A DNA stretch of 64,000 nt from Escherichia coli (GTDB lineage Bacteria > Pseudomonadota > Gammaproteobacteria > Enterobacterales > Enterobacteriaceae): the NCBI RefSeq assembly GCF_003334305.1, contig NZ_QOWS01000003.1; one strand, given 5' to 3'. This document shows positions 56,101 to 57,489 of the stretch, piece by piece; the first letter of the stretch is position 1, and each line of letters opens with the position of its first letter. A program made the position numbers.

Positions 56101-57489
56101 ACAACTGAATCACATCGACAGCTTCCTCATGAATAAACACTTCATGCGTAAGCACGGTCCTAACGCCTATTACGGGCAGAAGTAAGCAGTGCGCCCCGGA
56201 ATTATTACCTCCTGCGGGATGTAATTGGTCTGATTCCGGGGCCTCTCCAGTTAATAAAATCATCAACATCAGGTGCTTTATGGCTATCAAAGGATTGTTT
56301 GTCAGAACGGATCCGCAGCGTCGCCGCTATGGCGTTGCGTTACTTGTGGGTGTACTTTCAGGCATTATTTCAGCATTTGTTAAATGGGGAGCGGAAGTCC
56401 CCTTGCCACCGCGCACATTTTCCGGTGGTCGCGATGAATTTAACCCGCCGTATATCTTTCTACGAGATTATTTAGGTATCGACCCAACCCAAACTGTGTA
56501 CACATTCTCGGAACATATTATCAACCCGGTGATGGTGACGCATATCATCTTCTCACTGGTTTTTGCGATAGGGTATTGTGTTGTCGCGGAAATTTTTCCG
56601 AAAGTGAAATTATGGCAGGGGATATTAGCAGGGCTTATTGTGACAGTGGCAGTCCACGGTATATTTTGCCCGGCGCTGAATTTAACGCCGCCGCTCACTC
56701 AATTGCCTTTTGACGAATATGCGTCTGAAATCCTGGGGCATATTTTCTGGTTCTGGATAATAGAGATTATGCGCCGCGACTTACGTAATCGCATTACTCA
56801 TGAGCCAGATCCGGAAGTCGCAATTCGGTGAATAACCGTATAAAAAAGCCCCCTGCGAAGGGGGCAAAGCAAACTATGGCAATGTTTCGTTGGTTATACC
56901 TGGTGCTAGCGATAAATATCCGCGCTGGCGTGCATATTGCCGTTACTCCCCGGTTCCCGCATCAGAATTACGTGGTAGTACGTTGCGCCCTGCGCATCTG
57001 TCTCTTCATTTAATGCCTGACGCGCTTCGCTTTCAGTGGCGAAATTATGATTGATATAAATCACGCCTAAGCTTTGCACATCATCCATGTTTCTGGCCTG
57101 GTGGTTATTAATTTCAATGGCTGCCCATGTATTTGCACTTAGCAAAAGCACAGCCAGAAGGGCTAAAACTCGACTGAACATAGATACCTCCTCGACGGCT
57201 GACTTTGTGTGCTCTCCTCTGTGATGATCTTCTGATTTAATTTTAATCAATGATAAAGAAGTTGATGGTGACCATTTCTGATGCAGTTGTTCGAAAAAAC
57301 ACTGTGACGGAATGTGATGAACTTCAAATCAGGGAGTTAGTTCTTTTGAGCGAAAGATGAGATTTATTTGTCGGCTGGCCTTGAGTTTAGCGGGGCATAC
57401 AAGTACTATAACGCGTCATTTTTCAGCCGACCTTTAACACGTTCCTTGCCTCCCCGGGATTCGGCTGACCCAGACAGGAGGCTGAATAA

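Follow-up and report, generated by a model that had tools for sequence, protein, structure and literature searches.

A short-loop YagU-family gene located between ulaF and yjfY in a minority of Escherichia coli genomes

In a window of 64,000 nucleotides of Escherichia coli DNA (RefSeq assembly GCF_003334305.1, contig NZ_QOWS01000003.1), an open reading frame (ORF) of 183 codons separates ulaF, the last gene of the ulaABCDEF operon, from the convergent gene yjfY. Judged by sequence comparison, this ORF (56280..56831, + strand) is a genuine accessory gene on which purifying selection acts, and its product is a second, short-loop paralogue of the inner-membrane protein YagU. The gene is present in about one in nine complete E. 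coli genomes and missing from K-12. It is already known: it is ordinary accessory content, annotated in databases, and no new kind of system.

Results

An earlier note on this DNA had claimed a complete 183-aa ORF with a ribosome-binding site, and the ORF was found exactly there, as an intact frame with its ATG at 56280 and its TGA ending at 56831. The Shine-Dalgarno-like sequence AGGTG, as read from the sequence, occupies 56271..56275 (+ strand), 4 nt 5' of the ATG. The gap, which the note had put at roughly 720 bp, measures 720 bp from the ulaF stop (56185) to the convergent yjfY stop (56906) and contains the ORF. All four charged motifs quoted in the note, including RRDLRNRIT, are present in the translation. 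The Pfam family DUF1440 (PF07274) covers residues 29-163 and is matched over the full model (1-135 of 135; E 4.6e-45, 153 bits), in agreement with the proposed YagU/DUF1440-like nature of the protein, and a search of 5.8 billion proteins with the 183-aa sequence returned 355 homologues. Comparison with the orthologue of Escherichia whittamii gave a nonsynonymous divergence (dN) of 0.007 and a synonymous divergence (dS) of 0.33, hence a dN/dS ratio of about 0.02. Because of the PF07274 match, the homologues and this low ratio, the ORF is far beyond what chance would produce. Its assignment to a short-loop YagU-family (DUF1440) protein, predicted to lie in the inner membrane, draws on the ORF list, Pfam, the RefSeq annotation, the dN/dS ratio and an AlphaFold 2 (AF2) model.

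It is very improbable that the ORF is spurious or a functionless, decaying pseudogene. Such a reading could call on the 89% of E. coli genomes that do without the gene, and on a sigma-70 consensus scan that found no dedicated promoter. It is contradicted by the full-model PF07274 match and the dN/dS ratio, by the copies sampled over the identity range, which are intact and annotated without frameshift, by the retention of every family-invariant residue, and by the confident AF2 model. As far as sequence evidence goes, the conservation data refute it.

The distribution of the gene was determined by megablast in 5426 complete E. coli genomes, using as queries the interval 56150-56900 and the ORF alone. 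The whole interval was found in 604 genomes, and the ORF alone again in 604 (about 11%), at 96.4-100% identity and with every copy covering at least 80% of the ORF. Sixty copies sampled over this identity range were all full length and annotated either as "YagU family protein" or as "DUF1440 domain-containing protein". In non-carriers, only the last 59 bases of the interval match, which span the end of the gene and the yjfY terminator. The gene is found, for example, in E. coli W, O104:H4 2009EL-2071 and a strain named ST167; K-12, O157:H7 and BL21 lack it. CFSAN061769 is 100% identical to the window across the searched ulaF-yjfY interval, and the same coordinates are annotated there by the RefSeq Prokaryotic Genome Annotation Pipeline as 'YagU family protein' (WP_000985137.1). 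The earlier suggestion of "strain-specific content or an unannotated gene" is therefore borne out in its first half, by the 604 carriers, and fails in its second. The statement in the note that K-12 has no annotated gene at this position proved right: in MG1655, as in a K-12-like strain, yjfY is annotated directly after ulaF with a spacer of 129 bp. The blastn alignment of the window with MG1655 runs from 26798 to 56238 and resumes from 56842 to 59000, leaving unmatched a presence/absence polymorphism of 603 bp (56239..56841) that is replaced by 14 bp in K-12. Alignment of the interval with K-12 and other E. coli genomes, one of the checks proposed at the outset, thus located the gene outside K-12 and in 604 genomes.

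Aligned end to end with K-12 YagU (204 aa), the predicted protein shows 57% identity and a single gap. This gap corresponds to 21 residues, including two cysteines, that form a loop after the first helix in YagU only. Canonical yagU is itself present at full length in 4887 of the 5426 genomes, leaving 539 without it, and CFSAN061769 carries both the window gene and canonical yagU, each intact. This makes the window gene a further paralogue, neither a replacement nor an allele. Its 57% identity, the missing 21-residue loop, its different locus and this coexistence likewise set it apart from an orthologue of yagU. Replacement of canonical yagU by the window gene had been considered in view of the numbers of genomes without yagU (539) and with the gene (604), and of a frameshift in E. 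coli W; it was rejected as a rule on account of CFSAN061769, which has both. In E. coli W (NC_017664.1, locus L060, 19018-19630), yagU differs from the K-12 allele solely by the loss of 2 bp at nucleotides 98-99. This frameshifted copy is flagged as a pseudogene in RefSeq, and the ula-linked paralogue is retained intact. Many strains of phylogroups B1 and A, among them E. coli W and O104:H4, presumably carry two YagU paralogues.

The homology search and Pfam comparison suggested in the note returned the PF07274 match together with homologues of two lengths. Short forms of 183-187 aa, 75-91% identical to the window protein, occur in Salmonella, Citrobacter, Pseudescherichia, Serratia, Hafnia, Klebsiella oxytoca, Raoultella, Providencia, Rahnella and Vibrio cincinnatiensis. 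Long forms of 200-216 aa, 53-60% identical, occur in Klebsiella variicola and Pasteurellaceae. The DUF1440 family is small, with 266 clusters at 50% identity among 1.84 billion representatives. Its distant members include proteins of Actinomycetota, Pseudomonas, Campylobacter, lactobacilli and Neisseriaceae. In an alignment of 47 sequences, extending down to 26% identity, P44, G114, G118, H126 and E150 are invariant, and all are present in the window protein. Conservation reaches at least 90% at G28, K35, G37, E39, P43, P56, P57, H88, Y99, P131 and S149, of which K35, E39, H88, Y99, P131 and S149 were all found in the window protein.

The AF2 model built on this alignment has a mean confidence (predicted local distance difference test, pLDDT) of 88 and a predicted TM-score (pTM) of 0.84. 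It comprises four long helices (17-38, 83-105, 107-132 and 144-173), a short helix (56-65) and a beta-hairpin (74-81). The four or so hydrophobic segments announced from the sequence correspond to three clearly hydrophobic segments and an amphipathic one, and to the four long helices of the model. Lysines and arginines are concentrated at the N-terminus, in the 104-110 loop and at the C-terminus, and the 38-82 loop carries a net negative charge; both termini are therefore predicted to be cytoplasmic. The topology prediction called for in the note thus yields four predicted helices with cytoplasmic termini. When the model was compared with AFDB50 by Foldseek, the top 50 matches were all DUF1440/YagU proteins, with E-values down to 6e-24 and TM-scores up to 0.94, so that the only fold relatives found for the predicted structure are other uncharacterised DUF1440 proteins. 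A PDB sequence profile search with the 183-aa protein gave no match, and no family model in NCBIfam or PADLOC matched it.

In the window, the gene is preceded by ulaF (55499..56185, + strand), which encodes L-ribulose-5-phosphate 4-epimerase and is identified by the ORF list and by the same RefSeq annotation in CFSAN061769. It is followed by yjfY (56906..57181, - strand), a convergent DUF1471 protein gene supported by the ORF list and RefSeq annotation. The corresponding neighbourhoods in other species were scanned in one genome per species (53 loci) by tblastn with the proteins neighbouring the gene in the window. The order ulaE-ulaF-gene-yjfY-rpsF-priB is found in E. whittamii and Pseudocitrobacter faecalis, and the order ulaE-ulaF-gene in Hafnia alvei, H. 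paralvei, Budvicia aquatica and B. diplopodorum. A Salmonella contig encoding a 91%-identical protein shows the order ulaABCDEF-gene-yjfY-rpsF-priB-rpsR-rplI. In Hafnia, ulaF and the gene are separated by 27 nt that contain a Shine-Dalgarno sequence but no hairpin; judging from this arrangement, the Hafnia gene almost certainly belongs to the ula operon and is co-transcribed with it. The ula association is not consistent across taxa: ulaE/ulaF lie upstream in only 6 of the 53 species loci (E. coli and the Salmonella contig being additional), and the remaining 47 have unrelated contexts, with varied neighbours in Citrobacter, Klebsiella, Serratia, Providencia, Rahnella and Vibrio.

A long hairpin (56192..56243, + strand; RNA fold -28.7 kcal/mol, z -2.8), the presumed ula terminator or 3'-end stem, stands directly 3' of ulaF. 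This element of about 50 nt is conserved in E. coli (K-12, L058:29394-29445), E. whittamii, Salmonella and Pseudocitrobacter. Comparison of K-12, Salmonella and Pseudocitrobacter reveals compensatory changes in its arms (CCCCGGAA/TTCCGGGG; CTGCGGAA/TTCCGCAG; CCCCGTCG/CGACGGGG), with GGGATGTAATTGGTC preserved as the internal stretch. K-12, Salmonella and Pseudocitrobacter have a U-run after the hairpin, and the window and E. whittamii do not; the sequence 3' of it reads CCUCUCCAGUU in the window versus CCGUUUUUC in K-12. An Rfam scan of 55500-57600 gave no family for this hairpin. The only stem-loop after the window gene is the GC-rich GCCCCCTGCGAAGGGGGC (56848..56865) detected by a terminator scan, which has its T-run on the - strand as the intrinsic terminator of the convergent yjfY; its conservation extends to K-12, E. 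whittamii and Salmonella.

The gene lies on the same strand as ulaF with a spacer of 94 bp, in which a consensus scan detected no promoter-like site. With no promoter found in the spacer and no U-run after the ulaF hairpin, the window allele could plausibly be transcribed by read-through from the ula operon, as we tentatively suggest. Weighing against this suggestion is the nature of the scan, a simple sigma-70 consensus that a real promoter could escape. In Pseudocitrobacter, a strong T8 terminator and a longer spacer lie between ulaF and the gene.

Other elements were noted around the locus. An RpsF leader (Rfam RF02893; 110 bits) was detected at 57426-57510 (+ strand), upstream of rpsF as expected. 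A sub-threshold match to STnc280, a Salmonella small RNA family, at 56836-56909 (- strand; 28 bits versus a gathering score of 80) overlaps the yjfY 3' end and terminator, and is probably mere terminator similarity. The match of the window to K-12 ends at 59000, downstream of rplI, where K-12 has yjfZ. The segment that follows (59001-63834) contains four genes on the - strand (59059-60030, 60083-61384, 61427-61927 and 61924-63834). This island encodes a tripartite ATP-independent periplasmic (TRAP) transporter (DctP, DctM and a YiaM-like small permease) and a 635-aa FAD-dependent oxidoreductase. A linkage of the YagU-like gene with this island 2 kb downstream was considered and rejected, the island being present in 1445 of the complete E. 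coli genomes as against 604 for the gene; it is a separate polymorphism.

Discussion

We consider it likely that the gene is old at this site, having been there at least since before E. coli diverged from E. whittamii and probably since before Escherichia diverged from Salmonella, and that K-12 and most other E. coli have lost it. The K-12 state would then reflect a clean loss of some 600 bp lying between the hairpin that follows ulaF and the terminator of yjfY. Alignment of the junctions shows that all alleles, including that of K-12, keep both of these stem-loops, with K-12 lacking everything in between. The dS value between the window gene and its E. whittamii orthologue (0.33) is the same as those of the flanking genes (0.38 for ulaE, 0.26 for ulaF and 0.35 for yjfY) and therefore fits vertical descent within Escherichia. 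In E. whittamii, as we read the alignment, the sequence TAAAAAA stands at both edges of the segment missing in K-12, so that a slippage deletion would be possible. Neither mobile-element genes nor long repeats were found at the ends of the segment.

Several observations weigh against an ancient residence followed by loss. The distribution is patchy, with E. whittamii alone having the gene among the representatives of Escherichia species. G+C content at third codon positions (GC3) is 47% in the gene as against 70% in ulaE and ulaF. At synonymous sites, divergence from the copies in Salmonella and Pseudocitrobacter has reached saturation, which it has not in the flanking genes. Furthermore, Salmonella Typhimurium LT2 probably lacks the gene; here the evidence is a literature search hit that ties STM4389 to Salmonella DUF1471 proteins. 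The patchiness, the LT2 case and the GC3 value would also fit gain by recombination.

The alternative is horizontal acquisition of the gene, by insertion or by homologous recombination of its flanks, into an empty ulaF-yjfY spacer, the K-12 state being ancestral. Besides the observations just listed, it can draw on the low proportion of carriers among complete E. coli genomes (11%), on a divergence from K-12 across the ula operon that is patchy and locally high, and on inter-genus recombination in the region, where Pseudocitrobacter ulaE is 95% identical to that of E. coli at the nucleotide level and its copy of the gene 74%. Nevertheless, we regard acquisition as rather unlikely. In Salmonella, E. 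whittamii and Pseudocitrobacter alike, the gene is found at exactly this place, flanked by the same pair of stem-loops; its dS from E. whittamii equals that of the flanks, and there is no integrase, insertion sequence (IS) element or direct repeat at its ends. E. coli alleles differ by up to 3.6%, which argues for a long residence. As to composition, judging by the copies compared, low GC3 characterises the family as a whole: it is 39% in yagU on the K-12 chromosome and 44% in the copy from Salmonella.

Two observations concern the ula operon itself. In Pseudocitrobacter faecalis (locus L005, 2321-4546), ulaF is 92% identical in nucleotides to its E. coli counterpart and, with the 95% of ulaE, corresponds to dS values of 0.24-0.36, compared with 74% identity for the YagU-like gene; this pattern suggests that a recombination breakpoint lies at the ulaF end and that the ula operon was transferred between genera. 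In the window, the segment 52000-56238 differs from K-12 at 5 to 33 positions per 500 bp, against an average of 1.4% over the 29 kb compared, which suggests a mosaic recombination history of the operon.

A possible function can be approached through YagU. The link between this family and acid resistance mentioned in the earlier note does exist in the literature (PMC1626474, PMC2270276), where it concerns the K-12 paralogue only. External acid raises yagU expression as much as 16-fold (PMC1626474, PMC2270276); this strong induction is not seen upon cytoplasmic acidification (PMC2270276). Survival of a yagU::kan mutant at pH 2 was 19% versus 70% for its parent, a loss of about three-fold (PMC1626474). 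The gene was also identified as a CpxR target by chromatin immunoprecipitation with exonuclease treatment (ChIP-exo; PMC7657598). Experimental localisation is available for K-12 YagU alone (cited in PMC2270276).

By analogy, the window protein might be a four-helix inner-membrane bundle with cytoplasmic termini, whose conserved polar residues on the periplasmic side could bind protons or metal and help the cell to tolerate acid stress; we put this forward, with reserve, as the most likely role. According to the predicted topology, K35, E39, H88, H126 and S149/E150 would all be only one or two helical turns away from the membrane face on the periplasmic side. This set of histidine, glutamate and lysine residues could mediate proton- or metal-ion binding and so support envelope acid-stress tolerance, as for YagU. 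Three points count against such a role. The clustering of polar residues is inferred from helix boundaries and not from model coordinates, and the acid-stress function is carried over from YagU, with which the window protein shares only 57% identity. In addition, no GTAAA-N5-GTAAA-like CpxR box (with at most two mismatches) was found in the 200 bp upstream of the gene, and a search upstream of the gene and its orthologues gave no convincing CpxR sites.

Alternatively, the protein could be an accessory of L-ascorbate utilisation, encoded by a seventh gene of the ula operon and acting for instance in membrane protection during ascorbate fermentation or as an aid to the UlaA permease, rather than as a general acid-stress protein. 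Enterobacteriaceae (E. coli, E. whittamii, Salmonella, Pseudocitrobacter), Hafniaceae (two Hafnia species) and Budviciaceae (two Budvicia species) all include members in which the gene comes next after ulaF, in the same orientation. The short Hafnia gap with its Shine-Dalgarno sequence and no hairpin would suit this proposal, as would the window spacer without a predicted promoter and the ulaF hairpin without a U-run. Set against this are the 47 of 53 species loci in unrelated and varied neighbourhoods, with upstream gaps of 200-450 bp, and the strong T8 terminator that separates ulaF from the gene in Pseudocitrobacter. Moreover, K-12 uses ascorbate through ulaABCDEF/ulaG without the window gene. 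Taken with these points, an ascorbate-specific role appears unlikely. Slimmer still are the chances of a more specific version, in which a short-loop DUF1440 protein coupled to ascorbate fermentation, encoded by an ancient and optional seventh ula gene that is operonic in Hafnia and would be read through from ula in the window, would shield the membrane from the acid or redox burden of the pathway. If true, the K-12 deletion removed part of the original equipment of the pathway, and the coupling would provide a first physiological handle on the DUF1440 family.

The significance of the gene is small, since it is already annotated in hundreds of genomes. It nevertheless illustrates well how old accessory genes escape notice when K-12 serves as the reference, and the presence of two paralogues matters when yagU knock-out or acid-resistance data are interpreted outside K-12. 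Whatever the function, the recurrent adjacency to ulaF and the conserved set of histidine, glutamate and lysine residues predicted on the periplasmic side offer two cheap experimental entry points into DUF1440.

Among known proteins, K-12 YagU (b0287), a DUF1440 inner-membrane protein, shares with the window protein the PF07274 domain and the FPKxKLWQG motif, and the same four-helix architecture is predicted for both. It differs in its locus, paoA-yagU-ykgJ as opposed to ulaF-yjfY, and in its 21-residue periplasmic insert with two cysteines, which the window protein lacks. Acid induction, CpxR binding and a phenotype at pH 2 are known for YagU alone. The short-form proteins of other Enterobacterales (Salmonella, Citrobacter, Hafnia, Klebsiella oxytoca, Serratia and Providencia), none of which is characterised, are encoded elsewhere in the genome in most genera. 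They resemble the window protein in their length of 183-187 aa, in the same short loop and in their 75-91% identity, and those of Salmonella, E. whittamii and Pseudocitrobacter have the same flanking genes as in the window.
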